DNA of 36,624 nucleotides from Thermoplasmata archaeon (GCA_049582265.1 JBAUTP010000288.1:1-36624); one strand, 5' to 3'. Positions 6,347-32,883 are shown, counted from the stretch's first letter. Notes: generated from the letters alone by a model not told the origin. Made by a program: numbers and translations.

Positions 6347-6384
6347 GAGAATGTAGGCCCGCTCCGATACCCATTGATGGGAAG

Positions 6385-6459
6385 TGCTCCCGGCGGGATT
6401 CGAACCCACGTTTCGTGGTCGAAGGCCACGGATCCTTGACCGGACTAGACTACGGGAGC
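6385..6459 (-). tRNA. tRNA-Glu (anticodon UUC), CCA not encoded
   Basis: Hand-folded 75-nt cloverleaf. Acceptor GCUCCCG/CGGGAGC; D-arm GUCU/GGAU with loop AGUCCGGUCAA; anticodon stem CGUGG/CCACG with loop CCUUCGA. It has a 4-nt variable loop, T-arm GUGGG-UUCGAAU-CCCGC and discriminator A. The D-loop resembles archaeal tRNA-Glu. Confidence 0.85.
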
Positions 6460-6535: not shown

Positions 6536-6904
6536 TCACGCGGACTCTTCCGGAATCAGCCAAAGCTCGTTGCCGTCGGGGTCCAGGAATTTGGCGCGCC
6601 ACCCCCAGGGAAATTTCTTGGGTGGCTCAGAAAACTTGACGCCCTGCTTCTTCCACCGTTGATAGACCCGTGGCAGTGCCTCGTTCGTGACGATGAGTAT
6701 TCCCGTGTTTCCGAACTCAGAGGCTTTCGGATGAGGTCCCATTTCGCAGAGGTGGAGAACCGCGCCCCGGCGAGGCTGCCCCACGGTCGTCCAGTGCTCA
6801 TCGTCGTCATCGATCACTTTGAAGCCCAGTGTCTCCGAGTACCATTTGGCGGCTTTCTTTCGGTCTCGCACCACCACCGCCACGGAGTGGACTCGGATGC
6901 TCAT
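6536..6904 (-). CDS. VOC / glyoxalase-bleomycin-resistance family protein
   Basis: 122 aa. N-terminal strand VHSVAVVVRDRKKAAKWYSETLGFKV and C-terminal FLDPDGNELWLIPE are typical of single-module VOC proteins. Confidence 0.85.
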   Translation of the reverse strand: MSIRVHSVAVVVRDRKKAAKWYSETLGFKVIDDDDEHWTTVGQPRRGAVLHLCEMGPHPKASEFGNTGILIVTNEALPRVYQRWKKQGVKFSEPPKKFPWGWRAKFLDPDGNELWLIPEESA

Positions 6905-7052
6905 CGTCGTTACCCTCGCCCCGACGCACGAGGAGTCCCATAGCGCTTGGGGGGTCGAGTGGGTCTACCTTCAAGCCCGGAGCGAATGTCATCCGTCGTT
7001 TCCAGCGTCGCACGTCGTTCGCTGGGGAGGGAGCTATCGTCCCACGTCGAGG

Positions 7053-8357
7053 TCAGCCGACGCGTTCCCAGCGTTCCAGTTTCTGAACCTTTCCGAGGGT
7101 CGAGCCCCGCTGGATCTCTTCCCGAACCCTATTTTCGTGCTCGAGCACATCCAGGGAGCGGTTTGCGATCTCCTGGGCCCGCTCGCGCGGCACGACCACG
7201 AGGCCACTCATGTCCCCAACCATCCAATCGCCGGGTCGAATGCGCTCCCCTCCCACCACTACCTCGACACCGATCTCGCCGTGGCCCTTAGGCTCGCCCG
7301 CGTTCGGAGCGACAAATCGACTGAAGGCCGGGAAGCCGAGAGCGAGGATGGCGTCCAGGTCCCGGATCGCCCCGTCGATGACAACGCCGGCGACGCCCTT
7401 CCCATGGGCGGACCAGCTGGCGAGCTCTCCCCAAACGGCCGTCGTTCCGGCACCCGCGTCGATCACGATCACATCCCCCGGGCCTGCACGATCGATCGCC
7501 TCCACGGGTTTGGCCCAATCCCCGTCACGCGTTACCACGGTCACCGCAGGGCCGACCAGGTGGACGCTCGGGGAGGTAAGGTGGGGGACAAGTCCGTGGA
7601 GCGCCCCTTTTCGTTGCAGGGCATCCGTCACGTTGGGGGCGGAGACCTTGAGGAAGGCCGCCCGGACCTCGTCCCCACGATAGCGCCGGAAGAGCTCGGT
7701 CCTCACCTCCTGGCGAGAATCGATCGCACGGCGAATCTGCTGTGTCGCCTCCTTGATGTTCGGGCTCTTGGTGATAGCGCCTCCCACGATGAGGATCTGA
7801 GCTCCCGCGACGGTGGCAGCAGCGACGGTCTCGGAGGTCAGCCCGCCGGCGACGCCGACCGGGAGCGAGGAGGCTTCGGCGAGCTCCTTCAGGACCGCGA
7901 ACGGCGTCTTCGCTTGCATCTGCATATCGATCCCTACATGCCAGCAAACCGCGGCCGCTCCGAGCTCGGCTGCCCGCCGAGTGCGGGTCACCGGGTCCGC
8001 GACATTCAGAAGGTCGACCACGACCTCGGCACCGTAGAGCTCTCCGCCCCGCACGGCCTCCGCGATGGTGTCGTCGTCGGCCGTGCCCAGTACGGTCACG
8101 AGGTCAGCGCCCGCCTTCGCCGCGATCTCCACCTCGAAGGCGCCGGTGTCCATGATCTTCATGTCCGCGACGACCCGTTGGTTCGGGAACTCCCTCTTCA
8201 GCGTCCGAACGGCGTCGAGACCCTCGCTCTTGATGAGCGGGGTTCCGGCTTCCACCCAGTCGGCCCCCCCCTCGACAGCTTCGTGCGCCGCCGGAAGGGC
8301 ACGCGAAAGATTCTCGAAATCCAACGCGACCTGGAGAACGGGGCGGTCGAGGCGCAT
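7053..8357 (-). CDS. bifunctional 3-hexulose-6-phosphate synthase (OMP-decarboxylase fold) / RraA-like domain protein
   Basis: 434 aa. The N-terminal half has HPS/HUMPS motifs (LQVALD, ADMKIMDTG, GADLVTV, VAGGL, LIVGGAI). The C-terminal half is RraA/MenG-like (GDVIVIDAGAG..AVWGEL, GVVIDGAIRD, FPAFSR). Confidence 0.85.
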   Translation of the reverse strand: MRLDRPVLQVALDFENLSRALPAAHEAVEGGADWVEAGTPLIKSEGLDAVRTLKREFPNQRVVADMKIMDTGAFEVEIAAKAGADLVTVLGTADDDTIAEAVRGGELYGAEVVVDLLNVADPVTRTRRAAELGAAAVCWHVGIDMQMQAKTPFAVLKELAEASSLPVGVAGGLTSETVAAATVAGAQILIVGGAITKSPNIKEATQQIRRAIDSRQEVRTELFRRYRGDEVRAAFLKVSAPNVTDALQRKGALHGLVPHLTSPSVHLVGPAVTVVTRDGDWAKPVEAIDRAGPGDVIVIDAGAGTTAVWGELASWSAHGKGVAGVVIDGAIRDLDAILALGFPAFSRFVAPNAGEPKGHGEIGVEVVVGGERIRPGDWMVGDMSGLVVVPRERAQEIANRSLDVLEHENRVREEIQRGSTLGKVQKLERWERVG

Positions 8358-8379
8358 GTGGCGACCACGAGCTCCTTCG

Positions 8380-8385
8380 TATTAA
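8380..8385. promoter_or_regulatory. single TATTAA box in the 63-nt divergent spacer (possible bidirectional TATA)
   Basis: This is the only AT-rich element between the HPS-fusion start (8357) and the methyltransferase start (8421). It lies 23-28 nt from the former (leaderless geometry) and 36-41 nt from the latter. Confidence 0.3.
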
Positions 8386-8420
8386 CCGTCCCGGGGTGTT
8401 CTCATGGGACGGGGCCGGGA

Positions 8421-9269
8421 ATGCGCCGCGGATCGATCAAGGTCATCCGCGGCGATGCGGCCGAGCTGCCAGGGATCCCCCCGGCATCGGTAGACCTCGT
8501 CGTCACATCCCCACCGTATCCCATGATCCCCCAGTGGGACGAGATGTTCGCTCGGGCCGGGGCTCCGACCTACAACGGCATGCATGACCGATTGGAGGGA
8601 GCGTGGCGGGCCTCCCATCGCGTGCTCGTCCCGGGAGGGATCTTGGCAGTGAACGTGGGCGATGCCGTCCGTCGCGTTGGCGAGCGCTTCCGTCTCTGGC
8701 CGAACCATGCCGAGGTCATGCGGCGTTGCGAATCCGTGGGATTCTCGCCGTTACCCTACATCCTCTGGCAGAAACCCATGAACCGTCCCAACGCGTTCCT
8801 AGGCTCCGGTTTTCTGCCGCCGAACGCCTACGTGACGTTGGATTGCGAATTCATCCTGCTTTTCCGAAAGGGCGAGCTTCGTCGGTTCCCCCCCCATGAT
8901 CCCGGCCGAGTCGCGAGCCGGTATTCCCGGAAGGAGCGCGATACCTGGTTCAGCCAGGTGTGGGAGGGGATCCGAGGGGCGCGTCAGGACGCCGATGGTC
9001 TCCGTACCGCGGCCTTCCCTCCCGAGATACCCCGCCGGCTGGTACGCATGTTCTCCCGGGCCGGTGATACGGTGCTGGACCCGTTCGCCGGCACGGGGAC
9101 TACGTTGTGGGTGGCCAGCGCGCTAGGCCGAAATGCGATCGGGGTTGAGCTTGAGCCTATGACGTTCGCTCGTCTTGAGGAACGGGCGAAGTCTCCCCCG
9201 GCGCTGAAGGAGCCTCGTGGGGCTCCGGCGTCTGGCGGTGCGCGATCTCCTCCTCGACGGCCTGCTTGA
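8421..9269 (+). CDS. beta-class DNA methyltransferase, SPPY motif (predicted N4-cytosine type), no cognate nuclease nearby
   Basis: These are the last 282 codons of the artefactual 816-aa track ORF. Motif IV is DLVVTSPPYP near the N-terminus and motif I is VLDPFAGTGTT near the C-terminus, so the motif order is that of a beta-class enzyme. ATG 8421 is the first start in frame after the divergent spacer. The last ~25 aa may be read-through. Confidence 0.85.
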   Translation: MRRGSIKVIRGDAAELPGIPPASVDLVVTSPPYPMIPQWDEMFARAGAPTYNGMHDRLEGAWRASHRVLVPGGILAVNVGDAVRRVGERFRLWPNHAEVMRRCESVGFSPLPYILWQKPMNRPNAFLGSGFLPPNAYVTLDCEFILLFRKGELRRFPPHDPGRVASRYSRKERDTWFSQVWEGIRGARQDADGLRTAAFPPEIPRRLVRMFSRAGDTVLDPFAGTGTTLWVASALGRNAIGVELEPMTFARLEERAKSPPALKEPRGAPASGGARSPPRRPA

Positions 9270-9774
9270 GGTAGCTCAGAGCGGAATTGTTGAGCCGGTC
9301 GAGGTGGAGTAAAAGGTAGTGCAGGTAGATGCGTTCGGGCCGGTGCGAGGGTCCGGGCGCTCGGTGGGGCCCCGGTCCAGGAAGCTCGTCCGTTTCGTTC
9401 CGTGCGTGCCGGGCGAGGGTCTCGGCATGATGCTCGTGCTCAGTTCCGTGAAGAGTGCGACCGGTGGATCCCGAAAGGGGCGGATAGATCCGACCGACGG
9501 GATCGTACGGCGGCTCGGCTTCCATCGCCGCCGAGCGGCTGAGCGCCTCGGCCCGCTGGAGGCGTTCTTGCACGTAAGGGTGAATCGGTCGGTCCGGATC
9601 CTGTAAGTCGGCGAGGGGAACGCCTGCCACATCCTCTACGATCGCTTTAAAATTCCAGCTGGAACGGCGCCGAACGGGCCCGTCGGCGGTCGGGCCCTGA
9701 GAATCGGCGGCCATCAACGACGCTCGCGGCCGAGGTCTCATAAACGTGCCGTTGGAGCTGAAGAACCTACTCAT
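9157..9774 (-). CDS. hypothetical Pro/His-rich soluble protein, last gene of the VirB4-type operon
   Basis: 205 aa. Its ATG overlaps the ATPase stop by 8 nt (ATGAGTAG). It has no TM segment and contains HGTEHEHHAE and a helical YLHYLLLHLDRLNNSALSYLKQAVEEE segment. No family recognised. Confidence 0.55.
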   Translation of the reverse strand: MSRFFSSNGTFMRPRPRASLMAADSQGPTADGPVRRRSSWNFKAIVEDVAGVPLADLQDPDRPIHPYVQERLQRAEALSRSAAMEAEPPYDPVGRIYPPLSGSTGRTLHGTEHEHHAETLARHARNETDELPGPGPHRAPGPSHRPERIYLHYLLLHLDRLNNSALSYLKQAVEEEIAHRQTPEPHEAPSAPGETSPVPQDERTS

Positions 9775-11443
9775 TCAACGTCGACGCTGGTGGGCTAAGA
9801 ACGCCTCGGAGGAACTCGTACTCGGGCGTCGACGCCACGACCGCGATGGGAAGGTGCCCAGGCCCTAAGCGCAGCAATCCTTCGGCGTACCCCGCCTCTC
9901 GCGGCAGCCGAGCTCGAGGGAGCCAGTCGGCCTCGGCCTCCGTGAGTCGGAAGAACTCGCGGGTGGTCGAGGACACTGCGGTCACGCGAAGAAACGTTGT
10001 GGCGCGTAGATTGCGAGCGAGAGCGCGCCCGCTCTCGGTCGCCAGAACGTCATCCGGATTCTGGCTGAGGAGCAACACTCCGGCATCAAAGTGACGGGCG
10101 AGTCGGACAAGCCGCTCCAGGAACTCGGCAGTCCGGGGGTCTCGAGTGAGGAGGTGCGCTTCGTCAACGATCAGCAGCTTCCGACCCGGGCGAGTGCGGA
10201 GTCGGACGAAGACGAAGTCGAGGCAGAAGGCGAGGTAGAACGGTAGTTGCTGGGAGGGGACGCCGGCGAGGTCGAACGAAAGAGGAGAGCCTGCCGACAT
10301 CAAGGTCGTCGGCCCATTGAGATGTCGGAGCGATCCCGTCCGGAAGACCTCCAGGAGGCCTCGGAGGCGTCCCGCATCCGATGACTCGGGGAGCCCATCG
10401 ATGAGGTCCGAGAACGTGGGTGGTGGGCCGGGCGCATCATACCGACGCCGGAGCACCGAATCGAGCTGGGCGGATTCCTCGTCACGGAGGCTGGGAAAAA
10501 GCGCGGAAACCATGGTGGTCACCCGGCTCGCCTTCTCATCGAGGTCGCCGGCGGTGGTCGAGGGGTCGAGAGGGTTCACCTGAACGAGAGCATTCGCGCG
10601 CATCGGAACGAGCGTTCCCCCCAACGCACGAACGAACCCCCCGAACTCCCCTAACGGGTCGATCACGATCACGTCGAGCTGCGGGCTCATCCAACGACTG
10701 CGCATCGCCCACAGTGCGGCAGCGAACGTCTTTCCCGAACCTGTCGTTCCGAAGAGAGCCCACGAGTAGCTCGCGTGCGACCACCGGTTGAGGAGGACGG
10801 GTGTCGCGTCGTCGAGCAGAAGCCCGACCAGGATGCCCTCGGGATCGGCAACCATTTCGTCCACGAACGGAAAGAACGACGCTACGCCATCCGTGGTGAG
10901 CGTATGCCAGTATCCCGATGGTCGGACCTCCGTTCCACCCAGCGACGGCGCCGCCGAGGCACGACTCGCTTCGTAGAGAGGAAGTCGGGACCGAAACCCT
11001 AGCGATTCGAGACCGCGACGAAGATCGTCGCGTACGCGCTCCGCACGGGCCGGGCTTCGGCCAAGGGCATGCAAACTCACGCCGAACCGCCAGAGCTCCT
11101 GCTCGCGCGCGGCCACATCGCGCGCGATGCTCGCCGTGACGTCCGCCTCTTGGGCGAGTTGCGCCGGCCGACCTCCCACTGAGCCAGATCCGCTCGCCAG
11201 CTCGGCTCGAGCCGTCACCGCGGCTCGATGGAGGATCTCACCCGCTTGAGGGGCCGGGATCGGGTGCAATTGAAATCGGAGCTCGGCGGGCCGAGAGGTG
11301 GGTAATATTCGGCCCAGGAACCCAAAAGGAACTTCGGGAGGAAACTCGCCTAGAAGGAGAGGAGCGTCGTATAGCATTCCGCGTTTCGTCCACAACCGCC
11401 CCTCGGTGGTCGCGGAACCGTTCGGACGGTCGGGGCCGGTCAC
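9767..11443 (-). CDS. VirB4/TrbE/CedB-type conjugation-family ATPase (C-terminal two thirds of a VirB4)
   Basis: Walker A FGTTGSGKT, VIVIDPLGEFGGF..LGG, Walker B KLLIVDEAHLL, and LLLSQNPDDV. An upstream EFPPEVPFGFLGRIL...LRFQLHPIP segment is typical of Gram-positive/archaeal (MPF-FATA) VirB4. The first 92 codons of the track ORF are Arg-rich junk overlapping the 101-aa gene. The start is GTG 11443 (GTGA overlap with the upstream stop) or ATG 11377. Confidence 0.85.
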   Translation of the reverse strand: MTGPDRPNGSATTEGRLWTKRGMLYDAPLLLGEFPPEVPFGFLGRILPTSRPAELRFQLHPIPAPQAGEILHRAAVTARAELASGSGSVGGRPAQLAQEADVTASIARDVAAREQELWRFGVSLHALGRSPARAERVRDDLRRGLESLGFRSRLPLYEASRASAAPSLGGTEVRPSGYWHTLTTDGVASFFPFVDEMVADPEGILVGLLLDDATPVLLNRWSHASYSWALFGTTGSGKTFAAALWAMRSRWMSPQLDVIVIDPLGEFGGFVRALGGTLVPMRANALVQVNPLDPSTTAGDLDEKASRVTTMVSALFPSLRDEESAQLDSVLRRRYDAPGPPPTFSDLIDGLPESSDAGRLRGLLEVFRTGSLRHLNGPTTLMSAGSPLSFDLAGVPSQQLPFYLAFCLDFVFVRLRTRPGRKLLIVDEAHLLTRDPRTAEFLERLVRLARHFDAGVLLLSQNPDDVLATESGRALARNLRATTFLRVTAVSSTTREFFRLTEAEADWLPRARLPREAGYAEGLLRLGPGHLPIAVVASTPEYEFLRGVLSPPASTLNE

Positions 11444-11745
11444 GCCCTCCCACGCCTCCAGCGTGTTAGAAGCAGCGGCGACCACGCCATGCCCGCTGCG
11501 AAAACCCCTAGGACTACTCCGGCTTCCCGATGGCTCAGGATCGTTAGGAGCCCGTAGAGGACCCAGCCGGTAGTTCCTCCGGCGATGGGGAGAACGGGAA
11601 CGGCGACGTGAATGCCCGGGCCGGCGTGCTGTCGGGCCTCGCCCCAGCGTATGAGTTCGATCGCTAGCGTGAGCGCCGCCAGCGCCCCGGTCAGACCGGC
11701 CCAGTACGGTGCCACCCACGATGCCGCGCCGGTCCCCACGGCCAT
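11440..11745 (-). CDS. small 3-TM membrane protein
   Basis: 101 aa with an ATG start and three hydrophobic stretches (AASWVAPYWAGLTGALAALTLAI, HVAVPVLPIAGGTTGWVLYGLLTIL, GVVLGVFAAGMAWSPLLL). Its stop is coupled to the ATPase start. It is far more protein-like than the overlapping frame. Confidence 0.6.
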   Translation of the reverse strand: MAVGTGAASWVAPYWAGLTGALAALTLAIELIRWGEARQHAGPGIHVAVPVLPIAGGTTGWVLYGLLTILSHREAGVVLGVFAAGMAWSPLLLTRWRRGRA

Positions 11746-11806
11746 GATGCCGGCCAGCCGCTGGGTGTTCTCACGGGTCGGAGCAGGGAAAAGCGGAGCC
11801 GCGATC

Positions 11807-12574
11807 TCACCCCCGTCCCAGTCCGAGGCAGCTCAGAGCGTGGTCGAGTGCACGTCCTTCGAGCCGGTCCACCGAGAGGCCTAGCTTTTGGAATTCCAGT
11901 TGCAGCGCCGAGACACGTACATCCAGGCGTTCTATCTCCCGCGCCGTACTTCCTTCGGAAAAGAGGACCCAACGCACACGGCGACGAAACCGGCGATGAC
12001 AAAGTAAGCGTACCATCTCGACATATCCTGCACGCGCCGAGCTGTCAGCTGTGGCATTCGCGTTCAGGACGCGAGGAAGGAACGGTCGCGCCGGAAGCGG
12101 CTCCACCCCCGCGCAAACAAATGCTTCGCCGCCGAGGGACCGCAGAGCGTTTCGATACGTCCCGAACAGATGGCGTCGATCTTCGAGCGGCAGAAAGGTG
12201 GTCGGCGTCCCGCCACTCACGAGCACGGCGGCGCTCCGTCCTTGGGAAAGTTCTACCACGTCGCCGGGTGCCGTTTCGAGGGATAGAGCGGGCGAAGACG
12301 GAGGAATGGGCTTCCGCCTACGCCAGCGCCAACCGACATAATCCGAGAGCCGGCGGTCGATCGGTTTCCCTTCCCAGCGAGGTAGGGTGACCAAGGCCCC
12401 CGCACCCAAACATGGAAGCCACGCCCAGGGGCCGAACCCGAGCGCGAGAAGCCCGCCGGCGACGGCATAACCGAGGAACTTGAGAGCATCCTGACCCGAG
12501 CGAAAGGGGCCGAGTTGAAGCGTGCGTTCGACGGGTTCGGGAAGACCGACCACGAAGGATTCTGCTCCGCTCAT
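11807..12574 (-). CDS. PrgI/VirB3-like membrane hairpin fused to a VirB4 N-terminal-domain-like region
   Basis: 255 aa. The N-terminus (LQLGPFRSGQDALKFLGYAVAGGLLALGFGPWAWLPCLGAGALVTLPRWEGKPIDRRLSDYVGWRWRRRK) follows the PrgI-family pattern. The rest (DVVELSQGRSAAVLVSGGTPTTFLPLEDRRHLFGTYRNALRSLG...) follows the N-terminal pattern of MPF-FATA VirB4 proteins. There is an ATGA overlap with the upstream gene. Confidence 0.65.
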   Translation of the reverse strand: MSGAESFVVGLPEPVERTLQLGPFRSGQDALKFLGYAVAGGLLALGFGPWAWLPCLGAGALVTLPRWEGKPIDRRLSDYVGWRWRRRKPIPPSSPALSLETAPGDVVELSQGRSAAVLVSGGTPTTFLPLEDRRHLFGTYRNALRSLGGEAFVCAGVEPLPARPFLPRVLNANATADSSARAGYVEMVRLLCHRRFRRRVRWVLFSEGSTAREIERLDVRVSALQLEFQKLGLSVDRLEGRALDHALSCLGLGRG

Positions 12575-13722
12575 CGGCCACTCCCGGGACGCGAAGGAGG
12601 GAAGCCGACGGTCTTCGGAGGCGAACCGGGCCCCGCACGATTCGGGCCATGCTTCGAGAGGTGGCTGACGAGGTGATGAGCCCCGCGGCCCAGCAGCTCA
12701 GCTCCGACCAGTGGGACGGTCGCCGGGAAGGAGCTCGCCCCCGCCGCACGACTCACCGAGGAGAGCAAGGACCCCGCGGCGCCGCCGGTCTCACCCGCAC
12801 TACTCCATGGTCGAGCGAGGCCCGTCGCAGCGGGCGAGACGCTGTTGAACCCCCGTTGGATCCCTCCCGATACTACGCCGGCGCTGCCCGGAAGGCCCAG
12901 GTGCCCCAGGTGAGTGCCCGCGGTGCTCAACAGGGCCGGTGAGGCGAGCGCCAGCGCGAGGTATGCGACTAGGATGAGCACGTTCGGAGACGCGACGGCG
13001 AGTTCGAGCGGAATCAGGACGACGCAGGGCCAGACCACCAGCTCGCCGAAGAGCCGCCAGGCCCGACGTGCAAGAGGTGCCAGGGTAGGGATCGGCCAAA
13101 CCAGGGTGAAGGCGGGAAGTAGCACGAGGAGTACGGCAAGGGCCGCATCCCGGAACGCGACGGCGACCGCCAGCAACACGATCTCGAAGAAGAGCGCGAA
13201 CGAAAGAACAAAGGCAATGGCGCCGTTCTGCCAGGAGAAGCCGATCTCGCCGGGTCCCGCCAGGTTCTCCCAGTCCCTCCATGCGCCACCGTCGAAGGCC
13301 GCAACAATGGGAAAGATGGTTCCCCCGAATCCCAAGAGAACGTTTGCGATGGGCACGGTGAAATTGGCGACGACGATCGCGACGAGGACTCGCGGAAAGA
13401 GCCCTTCGGTCGGCGGTCCCCACCGGCCGAGCGAGGACCGTGCCAGAAAGACGACGCCGACGGCGAGAACGACGATGACGATCGCGGGGTCGACCACCGT
13501 AACGAGGAGATACTCGCTGAACTCGGCAGCCACCGTTAGGAAACCGGCGCCGCCCGACCCGTCAAGGGAGAGGACGGGAAAGAGCGCGCTTCCGTTGAGC
13601 TCGGGGACGAGCAGATTGTTGTAGGTCGGCAGCAGGACTGCTGACAAGACGGCGGTGAGCTCACCGAAAAGCCCGAAGAGGACTCCTTGGATGATCTCCT
13701 CGATCAACTGTTCCAAATCCAT
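12571..13722 (-). CDS. polytopic (about 7 TM) VirB6/TrbL/CedA-like membrane protein with Gly/Ser/Ala-rich C-terminal tail
   Basis: Real start is ATG 13722 (MDLEQLIEEIIQGVLFG...), 10 nt after the pilin-like stop and preceded by GAGGA. The 67 upstream codons of the track ORF are junk overlapping the previous gene. About seven long hydrophobic segments are followed by a ~90-aa low-complexity tail. The assignment rests on architecture and context only. Confidence 0.6.
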   Translation of the reverse strand: MDLEQLIEEIIQGVLFGLFGELTAVLSAVLLPTYNNLLVPELNGSALFPVLSLDGSGGAGFLTVAAEFSEYLLVTVVDPAIVIVVLAVGVVFLARSSLGRWGPPTEGLFPRVLVAIVVANFTVPIANVLLGFGGTIFPIVAAFDGGAWRDWENLAGPGEIGFSWQNGAIAFVLSFALFFEIVLLAVAVAFRDAALAVLLVLLPAFTLVWPIPTLAPLARRAWRLFGELVVWPCVVLIPLELAVASPNVLILVAYLALALASPALLSTAGTHLGHLGLPGSAGVVSGGIQRGFNSVSPAATGLARPWSSAGETGGAAGSLLSSVSRAAGASSFPATVPLVGAELLGRGAHHLVSHLSKHGPNRAGPGSPPKTVGFPPSRPGSGR

Positions 13723-13732
13723 CGGAGGGTCC

Positions 13733-14104
13733 TCAGGTCCCGGTGAGGACCCAGTGGGCGAGCCCCCAGGCAAGCCCGGTGAGCGCGGCCGTGAACAGCA
13801 GGCTACCGATGAGCGCGTCCCGGGCGCGGTCCTTGGCCTGTACCTTCTTCGTGATATCGTTCGAGAACCAGCTGAGGGCGACGCGAGCCCATACGAGAGC
13901 GAGGAGCGCGCCCCCCGAGGCACCCACGAGGTCGACGAGACGGTTGAGAGCGGTCGTAAAGTTCGCCTCGGCCGTTTGCGCCGTGGGCCGAACCATCACG
14001 GTCGAGCCGTGAGCCGGTAACGGAAAGGGACCGGACCAGGAAAGAGCGAGAGCCACTACGAGGCCGAGGAGGAGGGAAGTACTCAGGTGCCCAGTATCGC
14101 TCAT
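13733..14104 (-). CDS. VirB2/TrbC/CedA1-type pilin candidate
   Basis: 123 aa. Signal-peptide-like N-terminus (LLLGLVVALALSWSGPFPLPAHG), then two hydrophobic helices (LVDLVGASGGALLALVWARVALSWF and LIGSLLFTAALTGLAWGLAHWVL) separated by a basic loop (KKVQAKDRAR). It is the first gene of the operon. Confidence 0.5.
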   Translation of the reverse strand: MSDTGHLSTSLLLGLVVALALSWSGPFPLPAHGSTVMVRPTAQTAEANFTTALNRLVDLVGASGGALLALVWARVALSWFSNDITKKVQAKDRARDALIGSLLFTAALTGLAWGLAHWVLTGT

Positions 14105-14313
14105 ACGGGTACGCTTCCCGAGGCACGTCCGGTCGCCGGTTCATCGGCGCGTCGAGGCCGCCCTTCCGTCGGGGAGATTCGCCGCGACTCGGTTTCTCTG
14201 ACCGACCGACCTCTTCCGTTGCACCCGCCAACGACCCGCAGCACGGAACCACCCGAATTCCGACTCCGTTGGGGGTATTTTCGCGCTCGTTGCCGAGCGA
14301 ACGGTGAAGGGTG

Positions 14314-14979
14314 CTAGGGGAACGTCGTCATCCAGAAGGCGACATGATCACGAGCGAACGGGCTCAGATCGGCGGTGCGCAGTACGCGGTAACCGGCTTC
14401 CGTAAGTTCCCGCTGCGCCGTTTGAGTGATCGCCCTTGGGGTTCGCGTCTGGGTCACGGAGCGAACCTTCAGCATGAACACGAGACATCCTCGGGGATTG
14501 AGGAAGGTGGTGGCGTTTTCGAGAAGGATCGTCGTTTGGGCTCGCTGCGCGATGTCCTGGTAGAGAAGATCGACGCGGCCCACGTCGGCGGCGTAGCGCT
14601 CGGGGAGCTGAGCGTCGGCGAGGATGGGCAGGACATTGCTCCTCCGATGCGCGAGAACGAGAAGTTGACCGAAGGCCACCGGGCTCTTTTCGACAGCGTA
14701 GACAGTCGCCTTGGGGAAGAGATCGGCGACATGGCTGACAGTCGTTCCATGAGCCGCTCCGAGATACAGCACGGACTCGACAGGGTCGGGCAGCGAGGGA
14801 AACGACGCCTCCCGGACGAGCAGGGCCGCGAGCTTCGACCGCCAAGGGTCCCACGTTCGATACTCCACCCCGTCGACGAGTTTGAGGTCTTCTCCGTATA
14901 CGCGATGGCCGATGTCCGCGTTCCGTGTGTAGACGTTGCGACCGTCCCGAAGGACGTTGGGCCACGTGGTGGGCCGCAC
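14314..14979 (-). CDS. flpA: fibrillarin-like rRNA/tRNA 2'-O-methyltransferase
   Basis: 221 aa. It aligns from memory along its whole length with archaeal fibrillarin: VYGE..VDGVEYR.W.P.RSKLAA, LYLGAAHGTTVSHVAD, VYAVE.SP, N..PILADA..P..Y, VD.LYQDIAQ..Q..IL..N...FL, and SPF..DH. Confidence 0.92.
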   Translation of the reverse strand: MRPTTWPNVLRDGRNVYTRNADIGHRVYGEDLKLVDGVEYRTWDPWRSKLAALLVREASFPSLPDPVESVLYLGAAHGTTVSHVADLFPKATVYAVEKSPVAFGQLLVLAHRRSNVLPILADAQLPERYAADVGRVDLLYQDIAQRAQTTILLENATTFLNPRGCLVFMLKVRSVTQTRTPRAITQTAQRELTEAGYRVLRTADLSPFARDHVAFWMTTFP

Positions 14980-14986
14980 TTCCCAC

Positions 14987-15451
14987 TCACCCTAGAGCGA
15001 CGGCCAGTTCGACCTCAACGGGAGCGTTGAGCGGAAGCGAGGCCACCCCCATCGAGACACGTGCCGGCCGGCCCCGCTCATCGAACAGTTCGACCAGCAG
15101 CTCGGTTGCTCCATTGCCTACATCATGCTGACGAACAAACCCGGTCGAGGAGGCCACGTAGATACCGACCCTGACCACGCGCGAGATACGGTCGATGGAC
15201 CCCAGTGTTGTCTGAAGAGCACTGAGGGCCTGAAGCGTGGCCCGCCGTGCGAGCTCCTTGGCTTGATCGAACGGCACGTCCCGATCGACGAGCCCCGGCG
15301 AGACGACCGACCCAGCATCGGTTACAATCTGTCCGGAGACCCAGGCCCGATCCTTTTCGACGACCACCGGTGCGTACGTCCCGGCGGGTTTTGGCGGAGG
15401 TGGGAGGACCAGGTTCTTCTGCTTCAGGCGAGCGGTCGGAGAGTCGACCAT
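14987..15451 (-). CDS. RidA/YjgF/L-PSP family protein
   Basis: Real start is ATG 15451 (MVDSPTARLKQ..., 154 aa). The 125 upstream codons of the track ORF are junk. Typical motifs are YAPVVV..D.AWVSGQ and ARVSMGVASLPLNAPVEVE. It ends 7 nt before flpA. Confidence 0.85.
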   Translation of the reverse strand: MVDSPTARLKQKNLVLPPPPKPAGTYAPVVVEKDRAWVSGQIVTDAGSVVSPGLVDRDVPFDQAKELARRATLQALSALQTTLGSIDRISRVVRVGIYVASSTGFVRQHDVGNGATELLVELFDERGRPARVSMGVASLPLNAPVEVELAVALG

Positions 15452-15473
15452 GCGCTCGGTAGTCCGTCGGGGG

Positions 15474-15523
15474 TAAAACCTCGCGGTGGAGCCCGTTGGT
15501 CCGTTGGAGCGGACAACGTAAAT
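15474..15523. promoter_or_regulatory. divergent promoter spacer with two AT-rich boxes (TAAAA 15474-15478 for ridA-flpA; TAAAT 15519-15523 for the zinc-ribbon gene)
   Basis: Each box lies about 23-28 nt upstream of its start codon (15451 minus, 15547 plus) in an otherwise GC-rich 95-nt spacer. This is archaeal leaderless-promoter geometry. Confidence 0.4.
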
Positions 15524-15546
15524 CGAACCTCCTCCTTCGGCCGCCG

Positions 15547-15900
15547 ATGACCTCTCTCTTTCGGCGGCTGCGTCGTGACAAGTCCGAAAAGGAGGAGGAA
15601 GAGAAGCCGGCGAAAGGAAAAGCCGTTCCTGAAGCGGCGGACCGCCAGCCTTCCGGCCCCGCAACGTCAGCCTCCAAATCGGTCGGATCCCCGGAGACCA
15701 AAGGCGCGAGTGCGTCGTCCGGCCCCGCAGCTGTGACCGATGTTCCCATGCGGAGCGAACCGCCCCCCGCACTCCCCCGTGGTGTCGATGCGAAGCCGAA
15801 TGCGGCCTCCGCGCCGATGAACACACTGAGGTGCTTCATTTGCGGCACCGAGATGCAGGGCTCGTGGTGCCCCACCTGCCAGATGTCGTGGAAGGACTGA
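15547..15900 (+). CDS. small disordered protein with C-terminal zinc-ribbon (CxxC...CxxC)
   Basis: ATG 15547 (MTSLFRRLRRDKSEKEEEE...). A Lys/Glu-rich then Ala/Ser/Pro-rich linker is followed by a terminal CFICGTEMQGSWCPTCQ motif. Confidence 0.5.
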   Translation: MTSLFRRLRRDKSEKEEEEKPAKGKAVPEAADRQPSGPATSASKSVGSPETKGASASSGPAAVTDVPMRSEPPPALPRGVDAKPNAASAPMNTLRCFICGTEMQGSWCPTCQMSWKD

Positions 15901-21680: not shown

Positions 21681-23678
21681 GTGATGAACGAGACTCGTGT
21701 CGCGGAGGCCGGCCCGGTTCCGAGCTCATCCGTCACGAAGGGGAAAACGGAGGCGGAATCCCCGAAGCTCGCGCGAACCGAATCGGTGGGGCTCGACCGC
21801 CCCCTCGTTGGGGAGCGCAATGACATCCAAGTCGTTACCGACCTCTTGGGGGTCATAACGGACCTAAATCCCCGTGCCGAGGAAATCCTGGGGCATTCGA
21901 GGGATCGTATCATCGGGACGCCGTTCGCGAACTACTTTACGGACCCCGGGCGAGCTGAGGAAGGAATTCGAAGGGTGCTCACGGAAGGCCATCTCATCAA
22001 CTACGAGCTCGTCCTACGCCCGCACGAGGGGGAAGCGACGGCGGCCTCGTACACTCTTGACACCCTCGAAGGTCAGGATGGGAAGGCCCGAGGGGTGGTT
22101 GCCCTGGCCCGAGATATCACCTCGCAAAAGCAGACGGAAAAGGAACTTCGGGAATCGCAGACCTACAACCGGGGACTCATCGAAGCCTCGCCCGACGCGC
22201 TCGTGACCGTCGACCTCGGCCTCAGGATTACCGACGTGAATGAGCAAATGGTCCATCTCACGGGTCTCACGCGCCGGCAACTCATCGGAAGCGTATTCTC
22301 CTCGCTCTTCGCGGATCCCCAACGGGCGGAAGAAGGGATTCGTCTCTCGCTCAAGAAAGGGCCGGTTACGAACTACGAAATGCTTCTGTGCAACCGCACC
22401 GGCGAGCGTATCCCCGTGGCTCTCAACACAGGAACACTCTACGACATGTCGGGGAACGTGGCTGGAGTTCTGGCCACGGCACGCGACATCACGGAACAGA
22501 AGAGGATCGAGACTGAGCTTCGAGAATCCCAGAACTACACCCGAGACCTGGTCGAGTCGAACATCGACGCGCTGATGGCGACTGACGTGCTGGGCCGGAT
22601 AACGGACGTCAACCGGCAAATGGAAGAGCTGACGGGCCTCGCCCGCGCTCAGATCATCGGTACGCCCTTCCGGAGATATTTCACGGACCAAAAACAAGCC
22701 GAGGACGCCATTCGTCGGGTGCTTCGTGAGGACCGGGTCACGAACTACGAGCTCACGATGCGAACTCGCGGCGGCGGGCGGATTGAAGTGTCCTGCAACG
22801 CGACCACGTTCCGGGACACGCAGGGGCGGCTCAAGGGGGTCTTCGCGGCGGCCCGGGATGTAACGGAACATCGACGACTCCATGACCAGCTCGAGCAACG
22901 CAATCGGGAACTCGAGGTTCAGAACCGGCGCGCGGAGGAGGCGAACCGGCTCAAGACCGAATTCCTCGCGAGCATGTCCCATGAGCTTCGGACACCGCTC
23001 AACAGTATCATCGGATTCTCCGAGTTCCTGGTCTCGCAAGCAAACAATGGGCTCACCCCGGAGCAGCGAGAGTATTTGGGTGACATCAACGAAAGCGGAG
23101 AGCACCTCCTCCGGCTGATCAACGACATTCTCGACCTCTCGAAGGTTGAGTCCGGCAAGCTCGTACTCGCCCCGGCTCCGTTCTCTCCACGAGAAGCGCT
23201 CCAAGCCGTTTGTTCGGTTGTCCGTCCGATGATCGACGAGAAACACCTTACCCTGAGCACGCACGTCGCCGTGGGGCTTGACATCGTGGTGATCGACGAA
23301 CTGCGATTCAAGCAGATTCTGTTCAATCTGCTTTCCAACGCGGTCAAGTTCACCAACGCGGGTGGGCGAATCCACATCACCATCACGCGAACGCACAACG
23401 ATCGGCTCGTTCTTCGCGTGAACGATACCGGGATCGGTATCGCTCCGGACGACGTCCCTCGCTTGTTCCGCCAATTTGAGCAACTCGAGACGGGTCCCGG
23501 ACGTCGTTTCCAGGGATCCGGCTTGGGGCTCTATCTCACCCGAAAGCTGGTGGACATGCATGGAGGAACCATCGATGTCGAAAGCGAGGTGGGGAAAGGG
23601 ACTACCTTTACCGTCATCCTCCCAGCCCGGGTGGACCAGCGGTCCCCCGTAGGGTCGCCGCCATCGACGGCCCCCTGA
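21681..23678 (+). CDS. soluble sensor histidine kinase with three PAS domains
   Basis: 665 aa. Three PAS repeats are each followed by ARDIT(S/E)QK...ELRESQ linkers. Kinase boxes: H-box SHELRTPLNSI, N-box LLSNAVKFT, G1 DTGIGI, G2 GSGLGL. No TM segment. Confidence 0.9.
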   Translation: MMNETRVAEAGPVPSSSVTKGKTEAESPKLARTESVGLDRPLVGERNDIQVVTDLLGVITDLNPRAEEILGHSRDRIIGTPFANYFTDPGRAEEGIRRVLTEGHLINYELVLRPHEGEATAASYTLDTLEGQDGKARGVVALARDITSQKQTEKELRESQTYNRGLIEASPDALVTVDLGLRITDVNEQMVHLTGLTRRQLIGSVFSSLFADPQRAEEGIRLSLKKGPVTNYEMLLCNRTGERIPVALNTGTLYDMSGNVAGVLATARDITEQKRIETELRESQNYTRDLVESNIDALMATDVLGRITDVNRQMEELTGLARAQIIGTPFRRYFTDQKQAEDAIRRVLREDRVTNYELTMRTRGGGRIEVSCNATTFRDTQGRLKGVFAAARDVTEHRRLHDQLEQRNRELEVQNRRAEEANRLKTEFLASMSHELRTPLNSIIGFSEFLVSQANNGLTPEQREYLGDINESGEHLLRLINDILDLSKVESGKLVLAPAPFSPREALQAVCSVVRPMIDEKHLTLSTHVAVGLDIVVIDELRFKQILFNLLSNAVKFTNAGGRIHITITRTHNDRLVLRVNDTGIGIAPDDVPRLFRQFEQLETGPGRRFQGSGLGLYLTRKLVDMHGGTIDVESEVGKGTTFTVILPARVDQRSPVGSPPSTAP

Positions 23679-24958
23679 TGGATGAGGGGAGGGACCACCG
23701 CGTGCCCCAGCTCTGGGACCGTCCGCTCAAGGCCGTTCTCTTCCTTCTGGTCTTCCTTCACACACCGCGGATCCGCCGCCACGAGGAGTCGGAGTTAGGG
23801 CTCTTGTATGAGATGGCCCCCACGGGTCAGCTGATCCTGGATGCGACCCGTCACATCCTGCTGGCGAATCCTGCCGCGTATCGGATCTTTCAGCGCCCGG
23901 CGGGAGAGCTCAGCGGGCTGCCTCTTTCGGAGCTCATCGCCCACGGTGCCGAGGCGACGCTCGACCAGGCCTTCACCATGGCCAATCGGCATGGCGGCAC
24001 TCCCCCCACCGCCCAGATCGATATCCTGGATGGGACCGGTTCTTCCCTTTCCGTAGAGATCGTGATCGGTCGGTTCCCTGAGCACGCGGGCCCGGGCTAC
24101 GTCGTGGTCCTGCGCGATATTCGGGAGCAGGTCGCCCTCGTAGAGGCGCTGATCGAACGGGGGGCGCAGCTCGCTCGTTCGAACCGGGATCTTCAGGAGT
24201 TCACCTACATCGCTTCCCACGACCTTCAAGAGCCGCTTCGGATGGTGGCCAGCTACACGCAACTGGTCGCTGAGCGCTACCAGGGAAAGCTCGACCCGGC
24301 CGCCGACGAATTTCTCGGGTTCGCGCAGGAAGGCGCGGCGCGGATGCAACGGCTCATCGATGACCTCGTGAACTATTCCCGCATCGATACGCGGGGACAG
24401 CCGTTCGCTCCCCTTTCCATGGACGCCTGCCTGACCGACGCCCTTCGCAATCTCGAGGTGATGATCCACGAGGCGGGCGCGACCATCGAACGGTCACCCC
24501 TTCCCAGCGTTGAGGGAGACCCGGTGCAACTCATGCAGGTCCTTCAGAATCTCATCAGTAATGCTGTCAAGTTCCATGGTACTGACCCCGCGAGGGTCGC
24601 GGTGCGAGGAGAGGACGAAGGTCCTACGGTCCTCTACTCCGTGAGCGATAATGGGATTGGCATCCCCGAAGAGTATCGCGAGAAGATCTTCGTGATCTTC
24701 CAGCGTCTGCATCGACGCGAGGAATACCCGGGGACGGGCGTGGGGCTGGCCGTTTGCAAGAAGATCATCGATCGTCACGGGGGCACCATCTGGGTGGAAA
24801 GTACCGTCGGAAAGGGATCCGTGTTCCGCTTCCGGTTGCCCCATCGGCAACCCGCCCTCCCTCCTCCGACGGACCGCCCGCCGGTCACGCCCATTGAACG
24901 AGAGGCGCAGCAACAGGCCGAGGACCTTATCACGGACCGCCTGAAGGAGCTCGTGTAG
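23678..24958 (+). CDS. PAS sensor histidine kinase (SHDLQEPLR-type H-box)
   Basis: 426 aa. Its ATG overlaps the preceding TGA (TGATG). It has one PAS domain, H-box ASHDLQEPLRMV, N-box LISNAVKFH, DNGIGI and GTGVGLA. Confidence 0.9.
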   Translation: MDEGRDHRVPQLWDRPLKAVLFLLVFLHTPRIRRHEESELGLLYEMAPTGQLILDATRHILLANPAAYRIFQRPAGELSGLPLSELIAHGAEATLDQAFTMANRHGGTPPTAQIDILDGTGSSLSVEIVIGRFPEHAGPGYVVVLRDIREQVALVEALIERGAQLARSNRDLQEFTYIASHDLQEPLRMVASYTQLVAERYQGKLDPAADEFLGFAQEGAARMQRLIDDLVNYSRIDTRGQPFAPLSMDACLTDALRNLEVMIHEAGATIERSPLPSVEGDPVQLMQVLQNLISNAVKFHGTDPARVAVRGEDEGPTVLYSVSDNGIGIPEEYREKIFVIFQRLHRREEYPGTGVGLAVCKKIIDRHGGTIWVESTVGKGSVFRFRLPHRQPALPPPTDRPPVTPIEREAQQQAEDLITDRLKELV

Positions 24959-24971
24959 GGGGATTACGTCG

Positions 24972-25733
24972 ATGGACGTGGATGCGCTCATCGCCGGCGT
25001 TTTCTCGCTGGTGGGCGTGGGGATCTATCTCTTCCTCGGGGTCCGGCTCGCCAATCGGCCGGTCTCCGCGCATTCCCGTTTGCCCGCGGGTCAGTTCGCC
25101 CTATTTTGGATCGGCCTCGCCGTCGTCACGTTGTTGGGGGCTCTCCTGAGCCTGGAAGCGATCTTCGTTGTGCCTTCCGTCGCGCTGGTCATCACCTTTG
25201 TTCACCTCGAGATCCTCGTTCTGTGCGCGGTGCTCTGGGGCCTGCTGGGGTACCTCACCTACCTCTATACGGGTCGTAGCTACCTCGTCGTATGGTCCGT
25301 CTGGTATGGGGCCCTCTATCTGGTCCTGACGTACATCATTACGGCCGCCACCAAGACGGTGACGGTCACGCAAGGCACGGTTACTCTCCAGTACACGAAC
25401 TTGGTCGGAGGACCGGTCTTGGATGTACTCATTGCGCTCCTCCTAGCTCCGGAGTTCCTCGGGGCACTGCTCTACTTCACCCTCGTTTTCCGGTCGCGCG
25501 ATCCCACCATTCGCTACCGGGTCACGCTCGTGAGCTGGAGCCTGATCGCATGGTTCGGTCTTGCCTCGATCAACCTGGCGGGACTCCTGGGCGGTGGCTT
25601 CGCGGCCCAGCTCCTGGACCACTCCCTCGGGGTGATCGCGGCGATCGTGATCCTCCTCGCCTACTATCCACCGCGCTTTGTCCGCGCCCGGCTCAGGGTT
25701 ACGGGGATCGACTCGTCCGTCGTGACACCCTAG
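24972..25733 (+). CDS. stand-alone polytopic (about 7 TM) membrane protein
   Basis: 253 aa, starting 13 nt after the kinase stop. It has six to seven long hydrophobic segments and a short beta-like TKTVTVTQGTVTLQYT insert. There is no catalytic or HTH motif. Confidence 0.7.
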   Translation: MDVDALIAGVFSLVGVGIYLFLGVRLANRPVSAHSRLPAGQFALFWIGLAVVTLLGALLSLEAIFVVPSVALVITFVHLEILVLCAVLWGLLGYLTYLYTGRSYLVVWSVWYGALYLVLTYIITAATKTVTVTQGTVTLQYTNLVGGPVLDVLIALLLAPEFLGALLYFTLVFRSRDPTIRYRVTLVSWSLIAWFGLASINLAGLLGGGFAAQLLDHSLGVIAAIVILLAYYPPRFVRARLRVTGIDSSVVTP

Positions 25734-25796
25734 TCGGCCCTCTCGAATTCGCCGTCCACCGAACTGGCGTCGCGAGACGAGCGTCCGGGGAACGGC

Positions 25797-25802
25797 TATA
25801 AT
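25797..25802 (+). promoter_or_regulatory. TATAAT box upstream of the receiver gene
   Basis: An isolated AT-rich hexamer 29-34 nt upstream of ATG 25831. Confidence 0.35.
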
Positions 25803-25830
25803 CCTTCCACGGTTCGTCCGCTCCTTTGCG

Positions 25831-26277
25831 ATGCGTGCCACCGACTCCTCACCGCCGGTTCGGATCCTCGTGGCCGACGACAATCCCGGAGACGTCCGCC
25901 TCATCCTCGAGGTGCTGCAGGAGAGCAAGATCGCGAACCAGGTCGATGTGGTACGCGACGGCGTCGAGGCGATGGAGCACCTCCGTCAGACCGGGGGCCA
26001 CGCCGGGGCCCAACGACCCGTCTTGGTCCTGTTGGACCTCAGCATGCCACGGAAGGATGGACGTGAGGTATTGGCCGAGATCAAGGACGACGCGGACCTC
26101 CGCCGAATCCCGGTCATCATCATGACGACATCGGCGGCCGACGAGGACGTGATCCTCGCGTATGACAACCATGCCAATTGCTATATTCGTAAGCCGGTCG
26201 ATTTCGAACAGCTCCGCTCGGTCGTCCAGAAGATCGAGAGCTTCTGGTTCACGGTCGTCACGCTACCGAGCCATTAG
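25831..26277 (+). CDS. single-domain response regulator (CheY-like receiver)
   Basis: 148 aa: ILVADDNPGD, phospho-acceptor region LVLLDLSMPRKDG, MTTS, and YIRKP. Confidence 0.9.
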   Translation: MRATDSSPPVRILVADDNPGDVRLILEVLQESKIANQVDVVRDGVEAMEHLRQTGGHAGAQRPVLVLLDLSMPRKDGREVLAEIKDDADLRRIPVIIMTTSAADEDVILAYDNHANCYIRKPVDFEQLRSVVQKIESFWFTVVTLPSH

Positions 26278-26324
26278 CCGGGGATCGTCCTCATCCCATC
26301 TGGGAGGGCGCGGTGCCGGTCGTT

Positions 26325-32804: not shown

Positions 32805-32883
32805 CGACACCGCAGTCGACTCACGGGCGAACCGAGAAGGGGGATGGTTCACGGAGCGGCCCGCTCGAGCCCGGAACCTTAAC

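Follow-up and report, generated by a model that had tools for sequence, protein, structure and literature searches.

The question raised by the locus described here is whether a small set of secretion-like genes, fixed in the chromosome of an archaeon, forms a machine for the exchange of cellular DNA. The locus occupies positions 9157 to 14104, minus strand, of a 36,624-nucleotide (nt) contig from a soil archaeon belonging to Thermoplasmata (GCA_049582265.1, JBAUTP010000288.1). This entire 36.6-kb contig, called the window below, is the stretch of DNA that was analyzed and sets the scope of our searches on the host side. We propose that it is a minimal type IV secretion system (T4SS) of monoderm type, domesticated and fixed in the chromosome, and most likely serving cell-to-cell DNA exchange as in the archaeal Ced and Ted systems; reasoning by analogy, we give this reading a probability of about 0.5. 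The features of the locus, with the length of each open reading frame (ORF) in amino acids (aa), are:

14105-14313, minus strand: spacer from the flpA stop to the g1 start, presumed promoter region; slot of an additional gene, g0, in most relatives
13733-14104, minus strand: g1, candidate prepilin, ORF of 123 aa
12571-13722, minus strand: g2, polytopic membrane protein, ORF of 383 aa
11807-12574, minus strand: g3, PrgI/VirB3-like N-terminus followed by a predicted ferredoxin-like domain, ORF of 255 aa
11440-11745, minus strand: g4, small protein with three predicted transmembrane segments, ORF of 101 aa
9767-11443, minus strand: g5, VirB4-family ATPase, ORF of 558 aa
9157-9774, minus strand: g6, soluble protein, ORF of 205 aa

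All six co-directional genes of the first-pass annotation of this DNA were recovered as minus-strand ORFs at these coordinates, and the junctions that it had described were each confirmed on that strand. Reading the minus strand directly, we found that 10 nt (13723-13732) separate the stop of g1 from the ATG of g2, and that there is an ATGA overlap between g2 and g3 (12571-12574); g4 and g5 overlap by GTGA (11440-11443) and g5 and g6 by the 8-nt ATGAGTAG (9767-9774). The remaining junction, which had been left out, is a 61-nt gap from the g3 stop (11807) to the g4 ATG (11745). Together with the synteny described below, these junctions bear out a single operon-like block amid chromosomal core genes.

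A VirB4 motor and its candidate partners

VirB4 is the only ubiquitous T4SS protein. The g5 product is laid out as a ~200-aa N-domain and a P-loop domain, and both its Walker A (GTTGSGKT, residues 232-239) and Walker B (LLIVDEAH, residues 423-430) motifs are intact. The GTG start at 11443 is backed by the conservation of the first ~25 residues among orthologues (alignment A1); the public gene call for g5 (P0001, 536 aa) is 22 codons shorter. In NCBIfam the highest scores were obtained with the Firmicutes-type conju_CD1110 (8e-33), VirB4_plasma (3.8e-22), VirB4_CagE (5.5e-17) and TraC (3.2e-14), and lower ones with CedD (3.8e-8), HerA (0.023) and CedB (0.09). All of these scores are under the equivalog cut-offs, and g5 is a divergent member of the VirB4 family. 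Pfam returned AAA_10 and DUF87, and the VirB4 C-domain in the PDB (4AG5) was matched at 1.8e-11. The AlphaFold2 model of g5 (predicted local distance difference test score, pLDDT, 81) has as its top Foldseek match TrwK/VirB4 of R388 (8rtd_O, E=2.6e-19, 553 columns), with 4ag5 at a template modeling score (TM) of 0.76 and the HerA proteins ranking below VirB4. Sequence and predicted fold both identify g5 as a genuine VirB4 ATPase, and it is nearer to monoderm bacterial VirB4 than to CedB or CedD; on both counts the earlier assignment stands. The accompanying proposal that the ATPase is split does not, because the C-terminal domain of g3 has no detectable link to VirB4 (see below), and g5 retains an N-domain of its own and aligns with TrwK over ~550 columns.

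The g5 homologues number 466. The best 120 are mostly 54-64% identical to g5, except P0002 at 83%, and all of those 120 that bear an organism name are Thermoplasmata, many bearing none. The closest bacterial relatives come from metagenome-assembled genomes (MAGs) of Mycobacteriales and Frankiales (26-29% identity), and the nearest plasmid-borne ones are DUF87 proteins of haloarchaeal megaplasmids (24% identity, ~1e-37) and proteins of Firmicutes conjugative plasmids. Nothing close was found in IMG/VR with the g5 profile, where the matches were remote and partial (<=25% identity). On Haloterrigena turkmenica plasmid pHTUR03 (L049, 156164-175924) the relative of g5, a DUF87 protein of 711 aa, is encoded after two hypothetical proteins of 96 and 316 aa and is followed by a 1510-aa PH-domain protein and a primase; the 316-aa protein has no profile similarity to g2 (hhalign).

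The g1 product combines an N-terminal signal peptide, a variable Pro/Ser/Thr/Ala spacer, an NF[T/S] sequon, and two hydrophobic helices with a basic loop (SNDxTKKVQAKDRARD). In an alignment of 32 sequences (A2) the N-terminus is variable and the ~75-aa C-terminal domain is almost invariant. The sequon (residues 48-50; 13955-13963) opens this conserved pilin domain, and its Asn is invariant in 32/32 orthologues, one of which has NL in place of NF; this suggests that the pilin N-terminus is glycosylated. The match of g1 to Pfam T4SS_pilin (PF18895) has E=0.004, which is under the curated cut-off (26.6 bits), and 4 of the 21 orthologues scanned matched the same family. A 93-aa protein from the Thermoplasmatales genome E-plasma is related to g1 by hhalign (P=2.1e-12, probability 97.7%) and itself matches T4SS_pilin at 2.3e-4; the link of that family to g1 is thus transitive. 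The g1 profile had no match among all PDB sequences (HMMER, E<=10), and its hhalign comparison with actinobacterial T4SS pilins was not significant, a similar loop motif being visible by eye only. The ratio of nonsynonymous to synonymous substitutions (dN/dS) is 0.23. The architecture fits the earlier description of a signal peptide followed by a two-helix pilin-like protein, and by weak or transitive homology we regard g1 as a probable T4SS-type pilin of this form.

In most relatives the operon has an extra first gene, g0, which encodes 500-760 aa (1762 aa in L040) and whose stop overlaps the pilin start (e.g., L001, L002); examples are L001:5706-7310, L019:5060-7324 and L040:1995-7283. The g0 products, presumably extracellular surface proteins, carry a signal or anchor sequence, Pfam PKD, SprB and Ig domains and up to 22 N-glycosylation sequons (<=22), and evolve fast (median identity 27%). 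Their conserved C-terminal tail is probably the source of weak winged-helix-like matches (DUF5817_CT, EutK_C) and may be a winged-helix-like cytoplasmic domain. The gene is absent from the window, L017 and L036, and positions 14105-14313 of the window hold no remnant of it.

The polytopic protein g2 has ~7 predicted transmembrane segments, a Trp-rich loop (W..W.NLAG...FSWDNGA) and a conserved RDALLAVLLVLLP helix (alignment A4), and is under the strongest constraint of the set (dN/dS 0.12). No match to it was found in Pfam, NCBIfam, PHROG or PDB sequences (HMMER, E<=10), Pfam TrbL was not found in the 20 orthologues scanned, and tblastn against 72,556 plasmids gave no match. Profile comparison by hhalign related g2 to a 330-aa neighbor of VirB4 in E-plasma (P=8e-8, probability 94.5%) and, weakly, to actinobacterial proteins of the TrbL/VirB6 family (P=0.029), within their Pfam TrbL-matching region. 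The topology and the position in the operon agree with the polytopic protein in the VirB6 slot that had been annotated, and by position and weak homology g2 is a candidate VirB6-like channel or platform.

The g3 product begins with PVVxLPERxDRRxRLGPFPSxRDALKF and a transmembrane hairpin (alignment A3); its AlphaFold2 model (mean pLDDT 80) has helices at residues 27-47 and 49-63, then a domain of two beta-alpha-beta units. Residues 7-92 align in register with actinobacterial proteins of 200-250 aa that are encoded directly upstream of VirB4 (hhalign, P=1.5e-4, probability 52%), one of which matches Pfam PrgI at 1.4e-5. For g3 itself there was no match to Pfam PrgI or to TrwM/VirB3 in the PDB, the g3 profile matched no PDB sequence (HMMER, E<=10), and in 114 orthologues drawn from g0-g4 and g6 no TrbL, PrgI or VirB3 was found by Pfam at E<=0.01. 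The first-pass annotation had described g3 as a PrgI/VirB3-like hairpin fused to a VirB4 N-domain; the alignment supports a resemblance for the former part, and the search for the latter turned out negative in every comparison. With hmmsearch against 1.84 billion representatives, the g3 profile found 134 clusters, exclusively stand-alone proteins of ~250 aa and none of VirB4 size (word-indexed searches returned 5 proteins with the single sequence and 42 with the profile, which marks the sensitivity limit of the tool). Among the 50 Foldseek matches listed for the g3 model there were generic alpha+beta ferredoxin-like folds and no VirB4, VirB3 or VirB8, and the hhalign comparison of g3 with g5 was not significant. 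We therefore rejected g3 as a VirB4 N-domain fragment. A partitioned VirB4 N-domain has a precedent in CedB/CedD (PMC11868833), and nothing in the cluster shows it. The C-terminal ferredoxin-like domain of g3, predicted to be cytoplasmic, is lineage-specific, and the gene has a dN/dS of 0.27.

The 3-transmembrane mini-protein g4 was confirmed as an ORF; it is 101 aa long in the window and 104-134 aa in relatives, where the 350-400-nt slot between g3 and g5 is filled by an ORF of g4 size immediately upstream of g5. It has no family match in Pfam or NCBIfam, its alignment (A8) shows ~19-34% identity only, and its dN/dS is 0.23 (two pairs). The g6 protein was earlier called unrecognizable and remains so, since it has no match in Pfam, NCBIfam, PHROGs, PADLOC or the PDB. 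It is mostly disordered, with the motifs RRRxSWSLKxIVEDVAGRPI, YDPVxxxYPPLVG and PERIYLHYLLLHxDRL (alignment A7, 28 sequences) and a dN/dS of 0.24. It is found in 38/39 of the syntenic loci described below, always between g5 and a methyltransferase gene; the remaining contig ends at g5. From its overlap with g5 it appears to be co-transcribed with the operon, and it is a possible component of the machine.

A conserved chromosomal position without mobility genes

The gene order DUF885(-)-ridA-flpA-[g0]-g1..g6-methyltransferase(-)-HPS-RraA recurs in 39 related loci, comprising two long contigs (670 kb, from the Lutacidiplasmatales genome GCA_022749815.1, and 450 kb) and 37 species-representative Thermoplasmata MAGs. 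The block is complete in 29 of the 39; the remaining 10, truncated where their contigs end, are consistent with it. Because this order repeats in 39 loci and dN/dS is 0.12-0.30 across g0-g6, g4 and g6 included (Nei-Gojobori), the observation goes beyond chance. The cluster thus lies at the same flpA to HPS-RraA site throughout, and the flanking genes are core genes, as had been supposed, with ridA-flpA and HPS-RraA conserved around it. The lineage is, as also supposed, a high-GC archaeal one outside Crenarchaeota, namely Thermoplasmata, and several of the MAGs (AcS1-45, AcS5-116, SubAcS...) belong to the Candidatus (Ca.) Lutacidiplasmatales set published by Sheridan et al. 2022.

Median pairwise identities are 82% for HPS-RraA, 69% for the methyltransferase, 66% for fibrillarin, 65% for RidA and 63% for DUF885 among the flanks, and 62% for g1, 59% for g5, 57% for g6, 54% for g2 and 40% for g3 within the cluster. 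The operon is vertically inherited with its core flanks, because the pairwise divergence of g5, g2 and g3 tracks theirs (Spearman 0.50-0.78, with 0.48-0.68 for core against core). It is under purifying selection and is neither a mobile element nor a fossil. The genes are intact in every complete locus; a few copies from long-read MAGs carry frameshifts, probably through sequencing error. Insertions of ~1 kb occur in the block between g5 and g6 (L010, L015) and between g6 and the methyltransferase gene (L019, L021).

Relaxase, coupling protein, integrase, Rep and Par families were not found by Pfam in essentially all ORFs of the window, and the other ORFs encode metabolic enzymes, transporters, sensor kinases and regulators. 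In addition, a coupling protein and a Replic_Relax protein from Actinobacteria served as tblastn queries; the window and 40 archaeal loci (±10 kb) gave no match to either, while 5/5 actinobacterial loci that extend past the VirB4 gene matched both. The claim that relaxase, coupling protein and integrase are lacking thus holds for the window and, as regards coupling protein and Replic_Relax, for the surroundings of the relatives. G+C is 0.64-0.67 in the cluster and 0.59-0.67 elsewhere in the window, two overlapping ranges, which agrees with the earlier impression of similar composition. A tRNA-Glu gene lies at 6384-6459, 2.7 kb from the cluster, and no att-like direct repeats of it or of any other sequence occur in the window; integration at this tRNA gene was rejected for lack of repeats. 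Over the window and the 39 loci, the hallmarks of a mobile element (integrase, att repeats, atypical composition, patchy distribution) were not found at the cluster.

A type II-like N4/N6 DNA methyltransferase gene, overlooked by the first-pass annotation, lies at ~8418-9269 on the plus strand between g6 and HPS-RraA (PADLOC MTase_II 5.5e-89; Pfam N6_N4_Mtase 1e-35). It converges on g6, the 3' ends overlapping by 113 nt, and stands beside g6 in all of the 39 syntenic loci where sequence covers that side. No restriction enzyme is recognizable. Besides MTase_II for this gene, PADLOC gave generic P-loop matches for g5 (mad8 40 bits, HerA 28 bits); g1-g4 and g6 had no match. The partner of g6 may be either the methyltransferase or the T4SS-like genes. 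The 816-aa plus-strand ORF at 6819-9269 is a high-GC artefact whose first two thirds are antisense to HPS-RraA (7053-8357, minus); its last ~283 codons alone are the methyltransferase.

Two related clusters lie at other sites. L040 is a divergent copy (g5 38% identical) with g1, g2, g3, g5 and a 1762-aa PKD-rich g0, among neighbors that look housekeeping, by eye only. In E-plasma (L046) there is a four-gene core in the order pilin, polytopic protein, ~230-aa protein and ATPase. Its pilin (P=2e-12) and its g2 counterpart (P=8e-8) are homologous to those of the window and its VirB4 is related, but the ATPase is 23-36% identical and 461 aa long, the chromosomal site is different, and g6, the methyltransferase and g0 are lacking. 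L040 likewise has neither the methyltransferase nor g6; an ORF after its g5 was rejected as a g6 homologue, being antisense to an apparent (by eye) UMP-kinase gene.

Other features of the window can be listed briefly. The usual archaeal operon partner of flpA is nop5; here flpA (fibrillarin; ridA-flpA span 14314-15826, minus) is preceded by a RidA-family gene instead, and the pair is kept in every related locus reaching that far upstream (n=29). A signaling island at 21681-26855 consists of PAS histidine kinases (21681-23678, 23678-24958), a 253-aa ORF of no assigned family, and stand-alone receiver proteins at 25831-26277 (+) and 26325-26855 (-). Two paralogues with BNR/Asp-box repeats (sortilin-like beta-propeller), at 29270-30400 and 31674-32804 (+), share 71-74% DNA identity and are 2.4 kb apart. 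Proteins with adenylate/guanylate cyclase domains are encoded at 32554-33915 and 33961-35313.

Known systems and competing explanations

Relaxase-less T4SS derivatives that are encoded in the chromosome and transport cellular DNA are known from archaea (PMC9905601, PMC11868833). Ced and Ted have been described in Crenarchaeota only (Beltran et al. 2023, PMC9905601), and a 2025 T4SS review covers, for archaea, plasmid systems only. Ted, found in Thermoproteales, consists of the pilin TedC, the VirB6-like TedA and the VirB4-like TedB (PMC9905601). Like the present cluster it is chromosomal, has no relaxase or coupling protein nearby, and combines a VirB2-type two-helix pilin with signal peptide (a probable one in the case of g1), a polytopic protein in the VirB6 position and an ATPase of VirB4 type rather than the HerA-like CedB type. 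The cluster differs from Ted in its occurrence in Thermoplasmatota, in its additional g3 (PrgI/VirB3-like), g4, g6 and, in relatives, g0, in its lack of an associated VirC1/ParA, Rad50 or HerA, and in the contiguity of its genes within one overlapping operon; moreover, the g1 profile had no HMMER match in a PDB copy expected to include 8DFT (TedC).

Ced (Sulfolobales, Desulfurococcales, Acidilobales) consists of CedA, A1, A2 and B plus CedD and CedE (PMC9905601, PMC11868833). It too is a domesticated chromosomal T4SS derivative with a pilin, a channel and an ATPase of the FtsK/HerA superfamily, and it transports cellular DNA in the absence of a relaxase. However, g5 is not an orthologue of CedB (11.3 bits, cut-off 700) or CedD (32.5 bits, cut-off 600), the Ced pilin has no cleaved signal peptide, and no Ups-like type IV pilus partner is visible beside the cluster. 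Archaeal Ced systems are said to have no VirB3 homologue (PMC11868833), whereas the N-terminus of g3 is PrgI/VirB3-like. Neither the g1 nor the g2 profile had an HMMER match in the PDB, CedA1 (8DFU) included. With CedB and CedD below cut-off and no PDB match for g1-g3, the cluster appears to be unrelated in sequence to Ced and Ted components.

A third comparison is offered by the T4SS of Patescibacteria (PMC12102498), which are likewise phylogenetically coherent, chromosomal and mostly relaxase-less derivatives of monoderm conjugation machinery with VirB4, PrgI/VirB3, VirB6 and PF18895-type pilins. Their hosts differ, being bacterial epibionts with tiny genomes, and they often keep coupling-protein and TrsD-type components. 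Roles in the epibiotic lifestyle have been proposed for them, while Lutacidiplasmatales are ~2-Mb heterotrophs as judged from MAGs (PMC9287336).

The conjugative modules around the closest bacterial relatives of g5 (MPF-FATA-like, MPF being mating-pair formation; L041-L045, L047) have the order TrbL/VirB6-like, T4SS_pilin, PrgI-like, VirB4, M23 hydrolase, VirD4-type coupling protein and Replic_Relax. Their TrbL/VirB6-like protein, their T4SS_pilin and their PrgI-family protein (200-250 aa, encoded just upstream of VirB4) have candidate counterparts in the cluster, and their VirB4 has g5. The archaeal cluster places the pilin gene before the VirB6-like one, which is the reverse of the bacterial order; its PrgI-like protein is unrelated to the actinobacterial one in the C-terminal half; and the M23 wall hydrolase, the VirD4-type coupling protein and Replic_Relax are missing. 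The resemblance in the core module, with these three further genes missing, is counted for a domesticated T4SS. In these modules T4SS_pilin is matched at 7.7e-12 and the PrgI-family proteins bear long proline-rich C-terminal extensions.

The cluster is chromosomal, lineage-wide, vertically inherited and without a relaxase nearby, and it joins a probable pilin, a candidate VirB6-like protein and a VirB4-like protein, of which the VirB6-like one is the weakest element. In the mechanism that we propose, Sec would export g1, and removal of its signal peptide would leave a membrane-embedded pilin with two helices and, probably, an N-glycan at the invariant NFT. The g2 protein, in the VirB6 position, would form a membrane platform or channel, to which the g3 hairpin, perhaps together with g4, would tether the VirB4 hexamer, as VirB3 does in R388. 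VirB4 would extract pilins, build a conjugative-type pilus and energize transfer, and g0, where present, would give cell-cell recognition. Because no relaxase or coupling protein was found nearby (in the window and ±10 kb of the relatives), the likeliest cargo would be chromosomal DNA; by analogy, it would most likely pass between cells of the same lineage for recombination or repair.

Several points weigh against this reading. DNA transfer is proposed from analogy alone, and the chromosomal relaxase-less T4SS of Patescibacteria may serve other purposes (PMC12102498). The Pfam score of the pilin is below threshold and the assignment of g2 to VirB6 is weak (P=0.029; no Pfam or PDB match). No DNA-repair, ParA or HerA/Rad50 genes stand beside the cluster, unlike at some Ted loci, and g0, the presumed contact factor, is missing in the window genome. 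Finally, a coupling protein may sit elsewhere in the genome, as does a VirD4 homologue in Cuniculiplasma (PMC5155288).

The alternative that survives best is a pilus that moves no DNA and serves adhesion, cell-cell contact, biofilm formation, or the export or uptake of proteins or other molecules. A pilus can be built with VirB4, a pilin and VirB6, components that process or bind DNA were not recognized in the operon (Pfam, NCBIfam, PHROG), and in most relatives the operon opens with the large PKD/Ig adhesin-like g0; the Patescibacteria systems are, moreover, thought to be non-conjugative (PMC12102498). Yet Ced, the sole archaeal chromosomal T4SS derivative studied by experiment, moves DNA, and Ted is proposed to do so; no conserved candidate effector genes lie next to the cluster, and the clade of the window has lost g0 and still retains g1-g6 under purifying selection. 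We consider such a pilus rather unlikely.

A distant coupling protein is also what would be needed if the cluster were the mating-pair-formation half of a full conjugation system, mobilizing plasmids or integrated elements in trans. The case for it comes from Cuniculiplasma, where a TraG/VirD4-family ATPase (arCOG04816) is encoded ~400 genes from the related VirB4 cluster (PMC5155288). We judge this arrangement improbable here: a coupling protein or relaxase was found in 0/40 archaeal loci (±10 kb) as against 5/5 actinobacterial ones, and strict vertical inheritance in a fixed position implies service to the host and not to an element. As for a decaying integrated conjugative element, or a methylation-associated defense or restriction module of g5, g6 and the methyltransferase, the nearby tRNA-Glu, the converging methyltransferase and weak PADLOC matches (g5 to mad8, 7.3e-11; methyltransferase to mad2, 3e-17) leave it a very small probability, with no att repeats or integrase, purifying selection and intact genes throughout the complete loci (conservation that contradicts a remnant), g5 scoring 113.7 bits with VirB4 families against 40 bits with mad8 and fewer with HerA, no nuclease signature in g6, and g1-g3 plus g5 present without methyltransferase or g6 in L040 and E-plasma.

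Implications for Thermoplasmata

Domesticated relaxase-less T4SS are a known kind of system; the Thermoplasmata version is undescribed in the literature searched, and further papers may exist. The paper on Ca. Lutacidiplasmatales mentions no secretion system, pili or conjugation (PMC9287336). For Cuniculiplasma, a cluster of arCOG05340, arCOG04034 (VirB4), arCOG05369 and a Thermoplasmatales-only membrane protein is listed in one sentence, as an annotation line with no analysis or proposed function (PMC5155288), and no other paper citing these three arCOGs was found in the literature searched. The E-plasma locus is probably this cluster, equated with it by composition only.

Dozens of species keep the cluster in a single chromosomal position, and a more distant homologue is present in Thermoplasmatales, at least in E-plasma. 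A wider proposal, to which we give somewhat less than an even chance, is that Thermoplasmata, from the soil and peat Lutacidiplasmatales to the wall-less acidophilic Thermoplasmatales, share an ancestral chromosomal DNA-exchange machine that came from a monoderm-type conjugation apparatus, independently of Ced and Ted or deeply diverged from them. No such machine has been described beyond Thermoproteota, and among archaeal ones it would be the first to have an anchor of VirB3/PrgI type. If our reading of the cluster is correct, it would be the third archaeal chromosomal relaxase-free derivative of conjugation after Ced and Ted, both of which belong to hyperthermophilic Thermoproteota. The C-terminal domain of g3, g4 and g6 are conserved proteins of no known fold or function and may be new T4SS parts. 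A homologue may occur in the cultivated Cuniculiplasma (PMC5155288, matched by composition only), which would make the idea testable there. Populations of the Ferroplasma type show extensive homologous recombination and mosaic genomes with no known route of transfer (PMC2704941); the Thermoplasmatales homologue would be a candidate for the route behind this recombination and for DNA exchange in wall-less acidophiles. The domestication of T4SS for cellular DNA exchange would then be widespread in archaea, including the mesophilic and acidophilic Thermoplasmatota.

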